In this document: in pieces, positions 29,025-42,959 of the stretch
How positions within the stretch are numbered: the first letter of the stretch is position 1
Layout of the letters: every line of letters starts with the position of its first letter
Assembly: GCA_963666055.2 (NCBI GenBank)
Contig: CAXWPH010000006.1
Span: 352,001 to 416,000, forward strand
From: Acidobacteriota bacterium
Lineage (GTDB): Bacteria > Acidobacteriota > UBA890 > WLXD01
DNA: 64,000 nt
Direction of reading: 5' to 3'
Position numbers and translations under genes: made by a program
The notes under the pieces: generated by a model
The model's database searches: none
The model's input: only the letters and a program-made list of their open reading frames with translations
Told to the model about the DNA's origin: nothing

Positions 29025-31672
29025 GCGGTGCTTTCAAGCCGCCGTTGGTGGCACGCTGCCTGTTGCGCCTACGGGTGGGCAACGAGCTGACCGGCGAAGC
29101 GATCCGCGGCGATCTGTGGCAGGAGTATGCGGAGCGCCGCCGTCGCGAGGGCGCCCTCGCTGCCGCTGCCTGGTACTGGCGCGAGGTCGCCAGCATCGCC
29201 AGCCAGCGTCGCGGCGCCGGGGGTCGGTTGCGCGCCTGGGCGGCCGGGTGGCACGCCGATGCGCGCTACGCGTTCCGCAACCTGCGCCGAGCGCCAGGAT
29301 TCACCCTGCTGGCGATCGGCCTTCTCGCCCTCGGGCTCGGTGCCACGACAAGCATCTTCACGGCCGTCAACGCCATGTTCCTGCGGCCACCGCCGCTCGT
29401 CGAAGACCCCGGACGGCTGCTCAACGTCTACACCTCCGATCACCGTGGGCGTACCTACGGTGTGTCCTCCTACCCGGACTACCTCGCCATTCGGGACGGC
29501 GTCGACGACTTTGCCGGGGCCACTGCGTTCATGCTCGGCTTGGAGACGAAGATCGGAACCGCCGGGTGGACCCGCGCGGTGTTCAGCAGCGCCACCTCGG
29601 CCGACTATCTGGAGCTGCTCGGAGCCACGACCAAACAGGGCCGCTGGTTCGCCCCGGACGAGGTCGGGCCCGATGCGCCAGGCGACGTGATCGTGCTCGG
29701 CTTCAACACCTGGCAGCAAGAGTTCGGCGGCGACGAAGGGATCGTGGGGAGCGAGGTCCGGGTGGATGGGCGGCCGGCTACCATCATCGGCATCGCGCCC
29801 GCTGGGCTGCTGGCGCCGGGGTTCCCGGTGTCCCCGGGTGCCTATGTGCCGCTCGCTGGCCCCGATATGGGACACCGCGGCAGCCGCTCTCTCCTGGTCC
29901 TCGGAAGACTGACCGACGGTGCGACGCTCGCCAGCGCCCAAGCGCAGCTCGACGCCCTGGCGCTCGAAGTTCATGAGCTCGATCCCGGCTATTCCTCCGA
30001 CCGCAACGGTGATCCGCGTAGGTTCAGCGCCCTTTCGGAGTTCGACGCAAGGCTCGACCCCGAGTCACGGACGGGCGCGGCGAGCTTCATGGGCCTCTTG
30101 CTGATCGTCGCCGGGCTCGTGCTAGCCATCGCTTGCTCCAACCTGGCGAACCTGCAGCTGGTTCGTGCCAGTGTCCGCGGCGGCGAGATCGCCGTCCGTC
30201 GGGCGCTTGGCGCCGGCCGGCGGCGTTTGCTGCAAATGCTGCTCGCCGAGAGCTTGCTGTTGGCCCTGGGCGGCGGCCTGGTCGGGCTTCTTCTCACCGT
30301 TGCCACGGCCAGGATCGTGCCGAGCCTGGGGATCATCCCGGGAGGGGTGGTCATCGACCTGGCGGTCGACCTCAGAGTATTGGCCTTCGCGCTGGCCGCA
30401 AGCCTGGTTACGGGCCTGTTGTTCGGCCTGCTTCCGGCGCTACGCGCCGCCCGGCCCGACCTCACGACCGGGTTGCGCGGCGCGGCCGGTCAGATTGCCT
30501 CGGGGCGCAACCGGCTGCGCTCCGGGCTGGTGCTCGTGCAGGTTACCGGCTCGGTCATTCTCCTGGCCATGGCAGGGCTGTTCCTGCGCAGTCTCGAGAG
30601 CGCCGTAGGTATCGATCCGGGCTTCGACCCCCGGGATGTAGCGCTGCTGCGGCTCGACGCGTCCGAGCTCGACATGAGCCGCGAGGAGGGACTCGCGCTG
30701 TTCGATCGGGTAGCCGACCGGCTACGCTCAGCAAGCGCCGTTGAGGACGTCGTCTATGCGTCGCGTGTGCCGCTCAGTGGTAGTTGGGAGCGCCGATCGA
30801 TCGAGATCGACGGATACCAGTCGCCGGACGGGGACAACCCCGCAGTCGCTGTCCACGCGGTGACGCCCGGCTACTTCCGCCTGATGCGCCTGCAGCTGAT
30901 GCGTGGCCGCGGGCTCCGCCACGAGGATGTCGACGGGGCTCCTGACGTGGCCGTCGTCAATCAGGCGTTCGCCGACCGCTACTGGCCGGGACGCGAGGCG
31001 CTCGGCGGGCGCCTGAGCATCGAAGATCGGCAGATCGAGGTAGTAGGGCTCGCCGCCACGACGCTGGCGCGCCAGGTGGTCGAGGACCCGACACCACAGG
31101 TCTGGGTAACGCTAGCCCAGATCTACCGCCCCGCCATGATCTTGCACGCCCGGGCCCGCACGCCCGCCGATGCGACGGTACTGGCGCTGGTCCGATCCGC
31201 CGTTCAAGAGGTGCGGCCGGACCTTCCGATTCTCGAACCGATCTGGATGACCGACCTGACGCGCAACGTCACGCTGCCGCAGCGGGTCGCGTCCACCGTC
31301 CTGGCCATCGCCGGAGCCATGGCCCTGCTGCTGGCTACCGTCGGCCTCTATGGCGTCATCGCCTTCACGGTCCGCCGGCGCACTCGCGAGCTCGGCATCC
31401 GCATGGCGCTCGGCGCCGGGCGGGCCACGCTGGTGCGCACCGTGCTGGCTGACACCGCAGCCATGACCGGCCTCGGCTTGACCATTGGCCTGGCCATCGT
31501 CGTTGCGCTCGGCCAGGTCATGGGCTCCTTCTTGCTCAACACTGACCCGCTCGACCCTCTGGCGCTGGGCGGCGCCGCCGTCGGGCTGGGGCTAGCAGCC
31601 ATGCTGGCCGTGATCGGGCCCGTCCGGCGTGCCACTCGAATCGACCCGGTACGCGCGCTTCGCGCCGAGTGA
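29021..31672 (+). CDS. ADOP-type duplicated MacB/FtsX ABC permease
   Basis: DARYAFRNLRRAPGF, IACSNLANL, EIAVRRALGAGR, GLYGV, RTRELGIRMALGA, IDPVRALRAE. ATGA overlap with padR. Confidence 0.93.
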   Translation: MSGAFKPPLVARCLLRLRVGNELTGEAIRGDLWQEYAERRRREGALAAAAWYWREVASIASQRRGAGGRLRAWAAGWHADARYAFRNLRRAPGFTLLAIGLLALGLGATTSIFTAVNAMFLRPPPLVEDPGRLLNVYTSDHRGRTYGVSSYPDYLAIRDGVDDFAGATAFMLGLETKIGTAGWTRAVFSSATSADYLELLGATTKQGRWFAPDEVGPDAPGDVIVLGFNTWQQEFGGDEGIVGSEVRVDGRPATIIGIAPAGLLAPGFPVSPGAYVPLAGPDMGHRGSRSLLVLGRLTDGATLASAQAQLDALALEVHELDPGYSSDRNGDPRRFSALSEFDARLDPESRTGAASFMGLLLIVAGLVLAIACSNLANLQLVRASVRGGEIAVRRALGAGRRRLLQMLLAESLLLALGGGLVGLLLTVATARIVPSLGIIPGGVVIDLAVDLRVLAFALAASLVTGLLFGLLPALRAARPDLTTGLRGAAGQIASGRNRLRSGLVLVQVTGSVILLAMAGLFLRSLESAVGIDPGFDPRDVALLRLDASELDMSREEGLALFDRVADRLRSASAVEDVVYASRVPLSGSWERRSIEIDGYQSPDGDNPAVAVHAVTPGYFRLMRLQLMRGRGLRHEDVDGAPDVAVVNQAFADRYWPGREALGGRLSIEDRQIEVVGLAATTLARQVVEDPTPQVWVTLAQIYRPAMILHARARTPADATVLALVRSAVQEVRPDLPILEPIWMTDLTRNVTLPQRVASTVLAIAGAMALLLATVGLYGVIAFTVRRRTRELGIRMALGAGRATLVRTVLADTAAMTGLGLTIGLAIVVALGQVMGSFLLNTDPLDPLALGGAAVGLGLAAMLAVIGPVRRATRIDPVRALRAE

Positions 31673-31782
31673 GCTGCGCGCACCAGAGCAGCCGGCCGGT
31701 GCCGACGCGATCGGTGCCGTCGGCTGGGACGTCTGGCGTCACTTACAGACCCAGGAAAGCGTCTCGCTGTTGCTCGATCGCC

Positions 31783-33413
<1,631 letters not shown>

Positions 33414-33417
<4 letters not shown>

Positions 33418-34559
33418 TTCGGCAGATTCATCGGCCGATAGTAGGGCCTGTCCCCGAGCTGCTCGAACTTCGCCACCCAGTTGCTTCCGGCCTGCTCCGG
33501 CGCGAACGACCAATCCTGCCGATGGTAGTTCCAGCTATCGGGGTTGAGCTCCTGCGCGGTCTCCCAGTACTGGTTCGCCAGATCCTCTTCACCCGCCAGG
33601 TGCAGGTGCGCTGCGAGGCGGAAGTTGGCATCGGAAAGAGCCTGGGCGGAGGTTCGGGGCGTGAAACCGGCAGCGACCTCTCCGGTGCCCAACGCGTAGA
33701 TGCTGTCGCTACCGTTCTCCACCCAATCCCGCACCGCGGGAAGGTAGTCGTCGGTGCCGAAAGACAGGTCGCCAAACTCGTACAAGCGTGTGTATGCACC
33801 CTCATCCTGCCGAACGATGACCCCATGCTCGTTGATCAGTACCGCCGTCGGAACGTTCAGCATGTCGTAGAGGGCGCTGACCGCGTGGCGTGAGTCGATC
33901 AGGGTCGTGAAGGTCGCGTTCGCGGCGTCATAGAAAGAGCCGGCGGCGGCCTCGCCACCGGTGTCCTGGGCCACGGCGACGATCTCGAAATTGTTGCCTC
34001 CAAGCTCCTCGTATACCTCCTGCCAACCTGGCAGGTCGCGGGAGCAACCTCACCACGAGGCCCAGGTGAGCAACAGCACCTTCTTGCCGCGGAAGTCGGA
34101 AAGGCGCACGAGGGTGCCCTGGCGGTCCGGAAGCTCGAAGTCCGGCGCCACAGCGTTGTCGATCAAGCCGCTGCGCAGAATCGGCGGCTCGCTGAAGCTC
34201 CACGTGCGATGCGTGCGATCGACGACGTAGGCCTGATCGAGCTTGCGCGCGAAGGCGGTGAGACTGAACCACCGCTGGGCATCGCGATTGACCACGATGT
34301 CGCTGTCGTCGTCCTGATTGACTGGAATACACAGGGAGTCCAGGCACGCGCCTTCCGGTTTGAGCTCGAAACCGTTGATCCGGGTCAGATCCTCCGGCGT
34401 AACCCAGAGATCGGATGGGTCCGCAAGGGTGCTCTCGACGGTTACAACGCGGTCGATGTACAGAACGGTGATCGGTTCCGGCTCGATCCTGGCGCACGCC
34501 GGAGTGGTTGCCAACGCCGCCGTGAGAAACGCGGCTGCGGTCCGATGTCGTCGGTTCAT
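33414..34559 (-). CDS. Predicted selenoprotein (381 aa, Sec170): TlpA/ResA-like redoxin lipoprotein with WASWUGC motif
   Basis: ORFs 34050-34559 and 33414-33974 are in frame. Read-through of TGA 34050-34052 gives APDFELPD..LSDFRGKKVLLLTWASW-U-GCSRDLPGWQEVYEELGGNNFEIVAVAQD, a continuous thioredoxin fold with later NVPT. Hairpin downstream. Confidence 0.9.
34019..34035 (-). promoter_or_regulatory. Candidate bacterial SECIS element
   Basis: mRNA CCUGCCA-GGU-UGGCAGG starting at +15 after the UGA. The AGGU apex resembles the E. coli fdhF SECIS loop. Confidence 0.78.
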
Positions 34560-34689
34560 GGTGTCCTCTCCAGCGTTGACGTCTCCTCGGTATTCGCTTG
34601 TATATCACGCCCCGAGCAACCCGCCGGGACTCGGACGGAAGCGCGAGGTCATCGCGAGCCAGCCGCGTTGATCGTACCGCCGGCAGACC

Positions 34690-34968
34690 CTAGCAGGCCG
34701 TGGTGAAAGTGTGGTGGGTCTGGCGACAGGGTCTTGCGAAGTGGAGGCAAGGAGAGAGGAGGAGGCGATGGGTACCCCATCGTTGACGAGCAACGACGCA
34801 GCTTACGCGCGCAACCCCCTGTCGCCCGAAGGGTTACGGCGATTTGGGGCCATTTGCGGCGTTGGCCTTCCTGGACGATGGCTAGGGCATCACCTGTGTC
34901 AGGCCGCCTTGCATCTGGCCCCAACTCGCCGTAACCAGACCCACCACACTTTCACCACGGCCTGCTAG
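34690..34968 (+). mobile_element. Full-length MITE (279 bp including flanking CTAGs)
   Basis: Perfect 34-bp TIRs, internal hairpin CGATGGGTACCCCATCG, no transposase, homologous copies elsewhere in the window. Confidence 0.9.
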
Positions 34969-34979
34969 CATCTGACCTT

Positions 34980-36050
34980 ATGGCAACACCGGTACGGATC
35001 GCCCTGCTCGGCAACTCGCATGCGGAAGGCGTGCAGCTGCCCGCACTCAAGCATATCGGCGGCAACGAGGTGGTCGGGATCGCCGGCCGCGATGCCGAAA
35101 AGGCCGCGGCGAGTGCACGGCGCTGGGGGATCGGTCGCTCGACTTCCGACTGGCGTGAGCTGCTAGAGCTCGATCCCGATCTCGTGATCATCGCCACGCC
35201 GGTGCATCTGCACGCCGAGATGGTGCGCGAGGCACTGAGCACCGGTGCCGCGTTGCTGTGTGAGAAGCCCTTCACGCTCGATGTACGAGACGCGGAAGAG
35301 CTCGCTGCGCTCGCCGAGGGCCGCCTGGCCCTGATCAACTATCAGCTCCGCTGGAACCCCAACCGCCGCAAGATGCGGTCGCTGTGCCAGGACGGGTTTG
35401 TGGGCGAGGTGCTGCACGTACGCGCGGACCTGCTGCTGAACACCCCCGGATTTCAGCACCGACCGTACACTTGGTGGTCGCAGACGTCGTGTGGCGGTGG
35501 CGTGCTAGGCGCTACGGGAACGCACCTGATCGACAATGTGCAGTGGATGCTCGGTCCGATCGAGGCCGTGAGCGCGCGTCTGGAGACGTTCGTCAAGCAA
35601 CGCGAGGATGCCGAGGGGGTCACGCAGCCGGTGACCTCCGATGATTTCGCCGAGCTTTGGCTGCGACTGGGGAGTGGCGCACAGGTGAGCCTGACAGCCA
35701 GCCTGGCGTTGCCCGGCGTGGCGCGCTGGTTGTTGGAGATCGCCGGCAGCGAGCGAACACTCTGCCTGGAGCGCGAACAGCACTTGACCGGCGGCCCTCA
35801 CGGAGACGATTTGGCGCCAATCGTCACAGACGTCCCCTGGCGCCCGCCGGAACACTACGGGATTCAAGGGCGCGGGCCATTCGCCGCCCTCGAGGCGCCT
35901 TTCCTCGAGGCCGTCGTCAACGCGGTGGCGAACGGAAGGACCGAGCTGGAGGAGGCAGCGACGTTTGCCGACGGCTTGAGCAACGTACGCATCCTCGCGG
36001 CGGCGCGGCAATCTGCGCGCACTGGCGGAGGCTGGATCGACTGTCGCTAG
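34980..36050 (+). CDS. Gfo/Idh/MocA family oxidoreductase
   Basis: DLVIIATPVHLH, LCEKPF, GGGVLGATGTHLID. Confidence 0.92.
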   Translation: MATPVRIALLGNSHAEGVQLPALKHIGGNEVVGIAGRDAEKAAASARRWGIGRSTSDWRELLELDPDLVIIATPVHLHAEMVREALSTGAALLCEKPFTLDVRDAEELAALAEGRLALINYQLRWNPNRRKMRSLCQDGFVGEVLHVRADLLLNTPGFQHRPYTWWSQTSCGGGVLGATGTHLIDNVQWMLGPIEAVSARLETFVKQREDAEGVTQPVTSDDFAELWLRLGSGAQVSLTASLALPGVARWLLEIAGSERTLCLEREQHLTGGPHGDDLAPIVTDVPWRPPEHYGIQGRGPFAALEAPFLEAVVNAVANGRTELEEAATFADGLSNVRILAAARQSARTGGGWIDCR

Positions 36051-40837: not shown

Positions 40838-42769
40838 TCAATGAGCATCGGGGACCGATGTAGGCTCCGCCGCAGCGCCCAAGGCGACCCAGTTGACGTA
40901 GCCGATCATCATCTCCTCGAACGTCTGCTCGCCCCAGACTACCTCTGCCGTCGGGTCGGGGTTGGCCGGATTGCCGGCGCTGTTGTCGTACCAGGCGGTG
41001 GCCCGAAGAATTGTGCCCGCAGCAATGGGGCGCGGTGACCGAAGAACGTAGTTGAGCTGCCAGTTGAAGTCGTACCGAGGAATCGACAGCAGCTCCTCGA
41101 CGTCACCGCCGGGCGAGACAAGCTCATAGCGGAAGGCGATACCGCGTACATGCGTGTGCGGCAGCAGCGAAAGCAGCATCGCCGGTTCGTCGAAGGTGTA
41201 GTCAGCGACCACCTGGTGGCGCCCCGCTCCGGGCGGAATCGCAAAGCGCATATTGAGCGCCGAGTCAGTACGCACCTCGGTGTGGCCGTGCTCCTCGGCG
41301 AAGTACAAGCCTATCCTGGTGCGGTCGACCACCTCGCGGCCATTCGGCGTGTAATGCAGCTGCACCTTGAGCCACGCGCCAGCCGGCAACAGCTTGCCGA
41401 ACCCCTGGGGAAACCGCACACCGTCCTGTCCGGGGACGTTGCTGGCGAAGTAGCCGCGCGCTCCACCCTGCTGCACGTTCTGTGCGTCGGGGTCGCCTTC
41501 AAGGGCGCGCTCACGCACCTCTGGATCCTCGACGAAGAGCAGCACATGGTGCACCACCTCGGGAGCACCGGGAAGGATCTCCACGGCCTGCACCCAGCGA
41601 TCCTCGGCGAAATTCGTCTTGATGTACTGGTACTGGTAGTCGATGACGCCTTCCGCCGGCACCGTGAACCCCTCGGGGACCGGCAGATCCGCGTCGGGCT
41701 CACCGAGGGTCCAGCCCTCGGTCCAGCGGATGGGAATCGGTGCGTCGGCAGCATCGCCCTCCGGCGTGCCATCGGCGAGCCACTGCTTGAACGTCGTCAT
41801 CTCCTCGGCACTGAGCGATGGGTCGTTGGCCCACTCCTCATGCCCCTCGGCGAACCAGGGCGGCATGAGGCCGTCCGCAAGCACCCATTCGATCATGCCC
41901 TTCCGACGTACGACGTCGCGGTACTCGACCAACGGAAAGGGACCAGCCGCGCCGGCGCGATGACAGCGCTGGCAACGCGCCTGCACGATACGGCTTACCC
42001 GGTTGTGCCAGGTGGGTGGCGGGGTCGAAGTCGCCGCCAGCGCCGCCTCATCGAACGACAGGTAGCATCCGGGCGCCAGCGTCGCGCGCACCGCCGGCAG
42101 CCTCGCCGCGGCCGTCGCTTCGAGCGCACCCCGCAGAAACTCCTGGTCGGCGGCAGGCTTCGTGTAACCGAGGCCATATTGATCGTCCACGGCTCCGCGG
42201 TACATCAGCGTGCGAGCCGCGTCGAGTACGAAGACCTCTGTCGAGGTAACCGCGCCCAGCGCGGCTGCGATGCGGCCCTTTGGATCGACGACATACTCGC
42301 CGACGAAGCCATACCACTCGATCTCTTGGTGACCCTCCTCGGGGGTGCCGTATGGCATCGGGTCGACGAAGAGAAATTCGAAGCCCGACTTGTCGAACTC
42401 CCGCTCCATGGTGGCAAGGCGGGGCCCGTACTTCTTCGAGAGCGGGCATCCCGGATCACGCATTGCGATGACCAGGCCTCGCGATCCGGTCAGCGCAGAG
42501 ATCCGCGTCGTTCGGCCCGTCAGAGTCTTCAGCTCGAGGTCGGGAATCAGCTCGCCAACGCGGGCGGCTTCATTGCCCAAGACGACGGGCGCGCCACGAT
42601 ACTGCAACGCGTGCCCCGAATCTTCCTGCGAGGCTTGGTGCTGCCGGGCAGCCTGCGGCGCAGGCGGCGAGACGGTCGCATCCACCCACGCTGCGGGAGC
42701 GAGAAACACCCCGCCGACCAGGAGCCCACAGGTCGCAGCAAACATCCAGTACCGGCTTGTCGGTTTCAT
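40838..42769 (-). CDS. Secreted redoxin + c-type heme + copper type II (PHM-like) monooxygenase fusion
   Basis: GCPLS and YRGAVDDQY (redoxin), CQRCH heme motif, VVHHVL, QLHY, PHTHVRG, EEMMIG. Confidence 0.85.
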   Translation of the reverse strand: MKPTSRYWMFAATCGLLVGGVFLAPAAWVDATVSPPAPQAARQHQASQEDSGHALQYRGAPVVLGNEAARVGELIPDLELKTLTGRTTRISALTGSRGLVIAMRDPGCPLSKKYGPRLATMEREFDKSGFEFLFVDPMPYGTPEEGHQEIEWYGFVGEYVVDPKGRIAAALGAVTSTEVFVLDAARTLMYRGAVDDQYGLGYTKPAADQEFLRGALEATAAARLPAVRATLAPGCYLSFDEAALAATSTPPPTWHNRVSRIVQARCQRCHRAGAAGPFPLVEYRDVVRRKGMIEWVLADGLMPPWFAEGHEEWANDPSLSAEEMTTFKQWLADGTPEGDAADAPIPIRWTEGWTLGEPDADLPVPEGFTVPAEGVIDYQYQYIKTNFAEDRWVQAVEILPGAPEVVHHVLLFVEDPEVRERALEGDPDAQNVQQGGARGYFASNVPGQDGVRFPQGFGKLLPAGAWLKVQLHYTPNGREVVDRTRIGLYFAEEHGHTEVRTDSALNMRFAIPPGAGRHQVVADYTFDEPAMLLSLLPHTHVRGIAFRYELVSPGGDVEELLSIPRYDFNWQLNYVLRSPRPIAAGTILRATAWYDNSAGNPANPDPTAEVVWGEQTFEEMMIGYVNWVALGAAAEPTSVPDAH

Positions 42770-42959
42770 TCGTTTCTGTCCAGTCGAGCGGCCGAACCTA
42801 CGCGGCGCGGAGAGCATCGACGAATAGTACGTTGCTGGACATCCCGGGGCCACATGCGCCTTCCGCGACGCTGCCGCAGCGCGTCATTGGGCTATCGGAC
42901 GAGAGACAGCGCCGGCGATTCAACTGCGCCAGGTAACCAGGCTCGCCCACGTCCTGCTA

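Follow-up and report, generated by a model that had tools for sequence, protein, structure and literature searches.

A predicted UGC-type, ResA/TlpA-like selenoprotein with an N-terminal cysteine pair in an Acidobacteriota genome

The closest catalogued relatives of the protein described here are found in two family entries. In 2008 a GOS family 'Prx-like (UGC-containing)' with 46 sequences was listed (PMC2398784), and this entry, in the part of the paper accessible to us, gives no architecture, location or activity. The second is NF041054 of NCBIfam ('WAxxUGC_long'), an equivalog of 354 positions named as a ResA-like WAxxUGC motif-containing protein. No functional study of the UGC/WAxxUGC family was found in the literature searched (supplements may list the gene), and the terms UGC, TlpA, ResA and NF041054 are all absent from the main text of PMC13326102. 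This is in agreement with a preliminary description of the locus, made from its letters, which had noted that related WAxxUGC proteins are annotated without an established function; NF041054 is indeed curated, and reviews list the family.

The gene under study lies in a window of 64,000 nucleotides, the whole stretch of DNA that was analysed, taken from contig CAXWPH010000006.1 of an Acidobacteriota bacterium, and positions are those of the window unless another contig is named. Judged by its sequence, the protein is a member of the catalogued UGC (WAxxUGC) family, and the family itself is not new.

The gene and its internal TGA codon

The gene is encoded on the minus strand, from an ATG at 34559 to a stop TGA at 33416-33414, and comprises 381 codons when an internal TGA (34052-34050) is read through. 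This TGA is residue 170, in the context WASW-U-GCSRDLPGW. Translation with table 11 breaks the gene into two ORFs of 169 and 186 aa, and the plus-strand frame at 33414..34559 is not the gene. A promoter search of 31500-35100 gave no match of the sigma-70 type. The main features at this level are the following.

33414..34559, minus strand: whole gene of a predicted UGC-type ResA/TlpA-like selenoprotein, 381 aa with Sec at residue 170
34564..34571, minus strand: ribosome-binding site GGAGAGGA, called from the sequence, 4 nt 5' of the ATG
34050..34052, minus strand: in-frame TGA, predicted Sec170, at the first (attacking) Cys position
34044..34046, minus strand: C172, second Cys of the U-G-C motif, the loop being CxxC minus one residue
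34019..34035, minus strand: putative SECIS hairpin, +15..+31 after the TGA, with 7 pairs and a GGU loop

The internal TGA is not a sequencing error, since the contigs of runs X2, X3 and X8 show no other letter there: those of X2 and X3, which may be the source samples, are identical over 33322-34700, and that of X8, from a separate study, spans the TGA with four differences, all elsewhere.

Pairing of Sec with Cys among homologs, for which the preliminary description had suggested an alignment, was observed in two datasets. A search of the protein database gave 649 matches, and in the best 120 of these, all full length, the U170 column holds Cys in 117, although such a search returns unbroken proteins only and is biased toward Cys forms. 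The genome loci reverse this picture. Examination of 87 loci (the best 80 of 149 from one search plus 7 from another; one without the motif and one with two copies) gave 87 motif rows, among which the TGA form predominates, with 78 TGA against 9 Cys codons, and the TGA recurs at the same codon across several phyla. The full-length Cys homologs cover 87-100% of the protein, in keeping with the claim that the fold continues unbroken across the TGA; the placement of this codon at the N-terminal active-site position, as U170 in WASW-U-GC, was also confirmed, on the minus strand, which had been left out. In one genome (G405) the two forms, TGA and Cys, coexist, at loci L021 and L061.

The sel genes, on which the preliminary description had made the selenoprotein reading depend, are present in the source genome (95.7% complete), with selA, selB and selD each above the curated cut-off, together with two tRNA-Sec genes. 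When selB was searched for in the genomes of 31 TGA loci and of all 9 Cys loci, a set of incomplete genomes in which kin are not independent, it was present in 31/31 of the TGA-form genomes (30 above the cut-off) versus 2/9 of the Cys-form genomes, one of these two also holding a TGA copy.

A hairpin at +15 (CCTGCCA-GGT-TGGCAGG, 34035-34019) had been pointed out before and stands. The test of its stem (6 pairs) used 76 distinct TGA genes, after merging two duplicates, and 2000 synonymous redraws with the codon usage of this genome: the stem is intact in 72 of the 76 genes versus a mean of 22.8 (maximum 35) in the redraws, and in none of the 9 Cys genes. Compensation is seen at the pair +15:+31 (C-G in 44, T-A in 28) and at the pair +16:+30 (C-G in 66, T-A in 8). 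The SECIS call rests on this conservation and compensation and not on energy, because the fold of the 96-nt region is unremarkable: its folding energy is no better than that of shuffles (z -0.61), and the minimum-energy fold of the fragment makes just part of the hairpin. A scan of the 64-kb window at Rfam gathering scores matched nothing either, so that the SECIS prediction proposed earlier is borne out by conservation and compensation but not by energy or Rfam. Similar hairpins, with a CGGGT loop, follow other Sec candidates of the source genome. Since the TGA/Cys pairing, the compensated hairpin and the Sec machinery coincide, we hold it as virtually certain, from sequence comparison, that the internal TGA is recoded as selenocysteine.

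Several further observations were made in this genome. The two tRNA-Sec genes (G000:C6:7932-8029 and C13:66090-66187) differ at one base, and further tRNA clusters are also doubled (C7/C10, C14/C15), for which duplication or strain mixing is possible. Within the window, the segment 11944-13407 (minus strand, TGA from 13110) is a deiodinase-like Sec candidate, GCLT-U-PPF, with a signal-like N-terminus, an NF038285 score of 62.8 bits versus a cut-off of 250, and a hairpin GGTCTCC-CGGGT-GGAGACC at +18; it is probably the first selenoprotein to which the preliminary description, calling the present one the second, alludes. Two paralogous TlpA-like Sec candidates, L009 (G000:C14:570897-571577, minus strand) and L010 (G000:C12:215974-216303, plus strand), share FASW-U-AGC (UxxC), a hairpin of the CGTGCC/CGGGT/GGCACG type and about 390-400 aa of additional C-terminal sequence; for the L010 copy, no NCBIfam family scores above its cut-off. 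A redoxin, L013 (G000:C15:964654-965019, plus strand), has an in-frame TGA in WSPT-U-LAC (UxxC), and a quick fold found no clear +15 hairpin for it. ARAGORN reports a 78-nt tRNA with a CUA anticodon ('Pyl') at G000:C5:65608-65685, minus strand; PylS (TIGR02367) was not found above cut-off in the source genome, and this tRNA could be a relic or could suppress amber codons. The window also encodes, at 40838-42853 (minus strand), a protein joining an AhpC-TSA domain to a C-terminal region that has a heme motif (CQRCH) and is copper monooxygenase-like.

Domains, export and neighbourhood

In the structure model (pLDDT 92.5, pTM 0.88), a loose N-terminus is followed by a beta-rich domain, a thioredoxin fold and C-terminal helices. 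The corresponding segments are listed below.

34491..34559, minus strand: predicted signal peptide, residues 1-23, with low pLDDT at residues 1-20
34496-34494, minus strand: C22 in TPAC, which fits a non-canonical lipobox or an A-x-A signal peptidase I site
34185..34478, minus strand: N-terminal beta-rich domain, residues 28-125, no Pfam family, weak fold likeness
34329..34346, minus strand: C72-x4-C77, on two strands of a predicted beta-hairpin, each Cys in 231/232 sequences
33699..34175, minus strand: ResA/TlpA/DsbE-type thioredoxin-fold domain, residues 129-287, with P237 at the cis-Pro position
33546..33650, minus strand: single TPR-like helix pair, residues 304-338
33510..33533, minus strand: conserved WNYHRQDW motif, residues 343-350, with R347 in 230/232 sequences

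The nearest folds of the thioredoxin-fold domain are DsbE (Z 15.5) and ResA (Z 15.2), with an rmsd of 2.2 over 140 and 137 aligned residues, and ResA is the top Foldseek match; AhpE and Bcp folds reach a Z of about 12. Pfam assigns the domain to AhpC-TSA (PF00578) with 70.9 bits, the cut-off being 26. In the alignment with relatives, the U-G-C loop is one residue shorter than in CxxC proteins and the following D/E-x-P stays in register, C-x-x-D-x-P of the UGC proteins aligning with C-x-x-E-x-P of their CxxC relatives. Four residues (C172, W179, P237 and W279) are invariant in 232/232 distinct sequences, and D199 is kept in 231/232. At the C-terminal end the model shows helices at 304-321 and 325-338, residues 306-342 match consensus TPR proteins, and Pfam TPR_2 matches 42/103 aligned rows. 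The TlpA/ResA fold, the U-x-C spacing, the N-terminal Cys pair in EGACLDSLCIP (C72 and C77) and the TPR-like C-terminus, all of them read earlier from the letters, hold up well against these data.

The N-terminal domain is predicted with high confidence when folded alone (pLDDT 96.2), and no Pfam family was found on it. Its best fold match is residues 52-151 of 5h3k_A, a Synechocystis hypothetical protein (Z 6.2, rmsd 3.8, 90 aligned), and it matches usher N-terminal domains with Z of 4.8-5.6; matches with Z under 8 may lie within the range of common arrangements. The C72/C77 pair is likely functional, since it is kept in both Sec and Cys forms (231/232), and it is retained in signal-less forms too. 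Interdomain covariation is weak (Neff 150), the best pair between the N-terminal and thioredoxin domains, D84-D232, having rank 36, and is too weak to place C72/C77; it gives slight indications of packing between the 343-352 motif and residues 202-210, and of proximity of residues 84-90 to 232 and 254-268.

To place the signal peptide in the family, we built a FastTree tree of 125 rows, excluding the window's own locus together with duplicates, loci that were truncated or frameshifted and one containing unknown residues (L029, L033, L040, L051, L058, L089, L096, L099, L100 and L101). The branch of the protein contains 92 rows (support 82), with an inner group of 91 rows (support 98). By a crude home-made heuristic rule, a signal is present in 85/92 rows of this branch, 23 of the 85 being twin-arginine, and at least 2 of the 7 misses are due to late start picks; the types include Sec, Tat and a few lipoprotein signals. 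By the same rule, the 14-row branch with the top NF041054 members and another branch of 13 rows are signal-free. Export therefore appears typical of the branch, as opposed to these two signal-less branches, and the protein itself is likely exported, judging from its N-terminus and its kin.

The preliminary description had gone further and proposed a membrane-tethered lipoprotein. The cysteine it relied on is there (C22 in TPAC), but TPAC fails the prokaryotic lipoprotein pattern, which is passed by just 4/80 genome loci and 4/120 database homologs, and the relatives have mostly cleavable or twin-arginine signals. A junction Cys is found in 4/4 genus members read (TPAC, TPAC, TPAC and TVAC, of which TVAC passes the pattern), and the relative G039 has LAAC. 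These sequences suggest about even odds for a lipid anchor in this genus, and such an anchor would be at most local to it.

ORF clustering over 80 genome loci and the window, disregarding the selenoprotein gene and the shadow frames that overlap it, revealed no conserved partner, no cluster occurring in more than 6/81 loci. Neither metal-handling genes nor a cytochrome c maturation neighbourhood recur among these 81 loci. Since no neighbour is conserved, no partner or substrate is indicated. In the window, an acetolactate synthase large subunit gene (31783-33417, minus strand; NF006187, 780.8 bits, above cut-off) has a start codon that overlaps the selenoprotein stop codon as ATGA. This gene also adjoins the selenoprotein gene in G002 and lies near it in G001, and is absent directly after the selenoprotein stop in G003 and G004; TPP enzymes near four distant homologs are 24-39% identical to it. 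We rejected it as a functional partner, as it directly follows only in G002 among the relatives read and given this low identity of the TPP enzymes. Translational coupling to Sec readthrough is conceivable for it in the window and in G002. The family is patchy, with NF041054 at E 1e-30 in 22/401 genomes of the phylum and the family present in 7/41 genomes in the search of relatives. At L093, two near-identical selenoprotein gene copies (L093:6477 and L093:12143) stand 5.7 kb apart, together with an adjacent ABC permease, possibly by tandem duplication or as an assembly artefact.

Possible functions of the protein

Because of the ResA-type fold, the cis-Pro loop, the acid residue and the presence of the Cys pair in signal-less forms, we favor a periplasmic disulfide reductase/isomerase. 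In the proposed mechanism, (i) SelB would read the +15 hairpin and insert Sec170; (ii) the signal peptide would direct the protein to the periplasm, where it is perhaps lipid-anchored in this genus; (iii) the Sec170 selenolate would attack a substrate disulfide held by the cis-Pro loop on one side and by the conserved, helical C-terminal lid on the other; (iv) C172 would resolve the adduct, leaving a strained U170-C172 ring; (v) the C72/C77 hairpin would re-reduce U170-C172; and (vi) C72/C77 would be recharged in turn, with a membrane protein of the DsbD/CcdA type as donor or, in signal-less forms, with reductants of the cytoplasm. A role of the Cys pair as an internal electron relay, suggested in the preliminary description, is plausible, since C72 and C77 lie on adjacent strands and are kept in signal-less forms, in which a purely structural disulfide is less expected. 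One DsbD_TM-type gene exists elsewhere in the source genome, and it counts for the recharging of the relay. For the scheme as a whole, with attack by Sec170, resolution by C172 and relay through C72/C77, the sequence and model data suggest a probability of roughly 0.45.

Peroxidase activity of the GPx/Prx type, in which peroxide would oxidise Sec170, C172 would resolve and C72/C77 would recharge, is the strongest of the other possibilities and is still unlikely. Peroxiredoxins are marked by the motif PxxxT/SxxC and glutathione peroxidases by WNF at the cis-Pro loop. In the protein the A-S-x-U-G context is like the GPx motif, and Pfam GSHPx matches residues 141-196 with an E of 3e-4 and 60/103 aligned rows at E up to 0.05, yet its 20.7 bits fall below the cut-off of 27, NVP replaces WNF, and the peroxiredoxin motif is missing, position -3 being Ala in 120/120 homologs. 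Likewise, the AhpE and Bcp folds speak for a peroxidase and are outranked by ResA and DsbE. The invariant D199, H225, R250 and W343/N344/R347 could make a catalytic set, and the accessible literature entry does use the name 'Prx-like'.

It is somewhat less probable still that the UGC site is a disulfide reductase/isomerase while C72-C77 forms a purely structural disulfide in a substrate-recruiting domain. Usher N-terminal domains, which bind protein cargo, are among the nearest folds of the N-terminal domain, and structural disulfides are common in exported proteins; however, an usher likeness with Z under 8 may be a mere common arrangement, and branches that lack a signal, and are probably cytoplasmic, also retain the pair. 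Joint binding of a metal or cluster by C72, C77, U170 and C172, in a chaperone, sensor or detoxifier, would account for four near-invariant S/Se ligands and for the twin-arginine signals in 23 rows, this route often going with folded, cofactor-loaded cargo; as the branch mostly uses ordinary signals and metal-handling neighbours do not recur, we consider it improbable. That the TGA is a true stop, in a pseudogene or between two separate genes, is very improbable. In favour of this, the 96-nt region has an unremarkable folding energy, and halves were found: among the best 150 representatives, 32 stop exactly at WAxx, and many others begin immediately past it. But such halves are the expected output of gene callers at a Sec codon, full-length Cys forms exist, and in several phyla the same codon is TGA, accompanied by a compensated hairpin and by selB.

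The practical consequence of this splitting is an annotation fix, since gene callers cut the gene at the TGA. Natural Sec and Cys versions, available even within G405, make the U-x-C chemistry and the possible Cys relay easily testable. The biology is modest, the family having been listed since 2008 without a function in what is accessible of that source, and the putative interest of a follow-up would be limited to the exported branch and to the U-x-C plus Cx4C chemistry. Speculatively, and with doubt, the exported UGC branch could be a self-contained periplasmic redox machine made of U-x-C, a Cx4C hairpin domain and a TPR-like lid, the Cx4C domain playing the electron-shuttle role of nDsbD with a different fold and the lid supplying W/N/R to the active site. 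If true, this would be a Sec-based route for repairing the envelope or for defence against peroxide; it would occur widely, in Acidobacteriota, Planctomycetota, Hydrogenedentota and marine Gammaproteobacteria, with annotation cutting it into two pieces.

Comparison with catalogued families

The protein probably corresponds to the 2008 GOS 'Prx-like (UGC-containing)' family, a match made by description: both have an AhpC-TSA domain, the UGC motif and one Sec, as far as the accessible part of the GOS entry goes.

Against NF041054, profile positions 6-204 and 230-352 are matched, and both have in common the Cx4C N-terminal domain, WAxx-U-G-C, the +15 position of the hairpin, the TPR-like helix pair and a C-terminal RQ motif. 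With 278.8 bits versus a cut-off of 300, the protein is by score not formally a member. Fourteen sampled relatives of the same branch obtain 253-328 bits, of which 3 pass (301.5, 317.5 and 328.3) and 11 fail, so that the branch straddles the cut-off; the protein itself has the motif and the full three-part architecture. The top NF041054 members (L103-L112; 479-498 bits) start about 116 residues before U, without a signal peptide and without the first hairpin, whereas the present protein has 169 residues before U. Our data add to the UGC family a division into signal-bearing and signal-less branches, much of the signal-bearing branch being missed by the NF041054 cut-off.

With ResA, TlpA and DsbE (CcmG), the protein shares the WASW lead-in, probable export, an acid residue three after the second Cys and, as predicted, the extended thioredoxin fold with its cis-Pro loop. 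It scores far below the ResA (76 vs 170) and TlpA (58 vs 230) family cut-offs, and it differs from these proteins by U-x-C in place of a CxxC or UxxC site and by its extra N-terminal domain and helical C-terminus.
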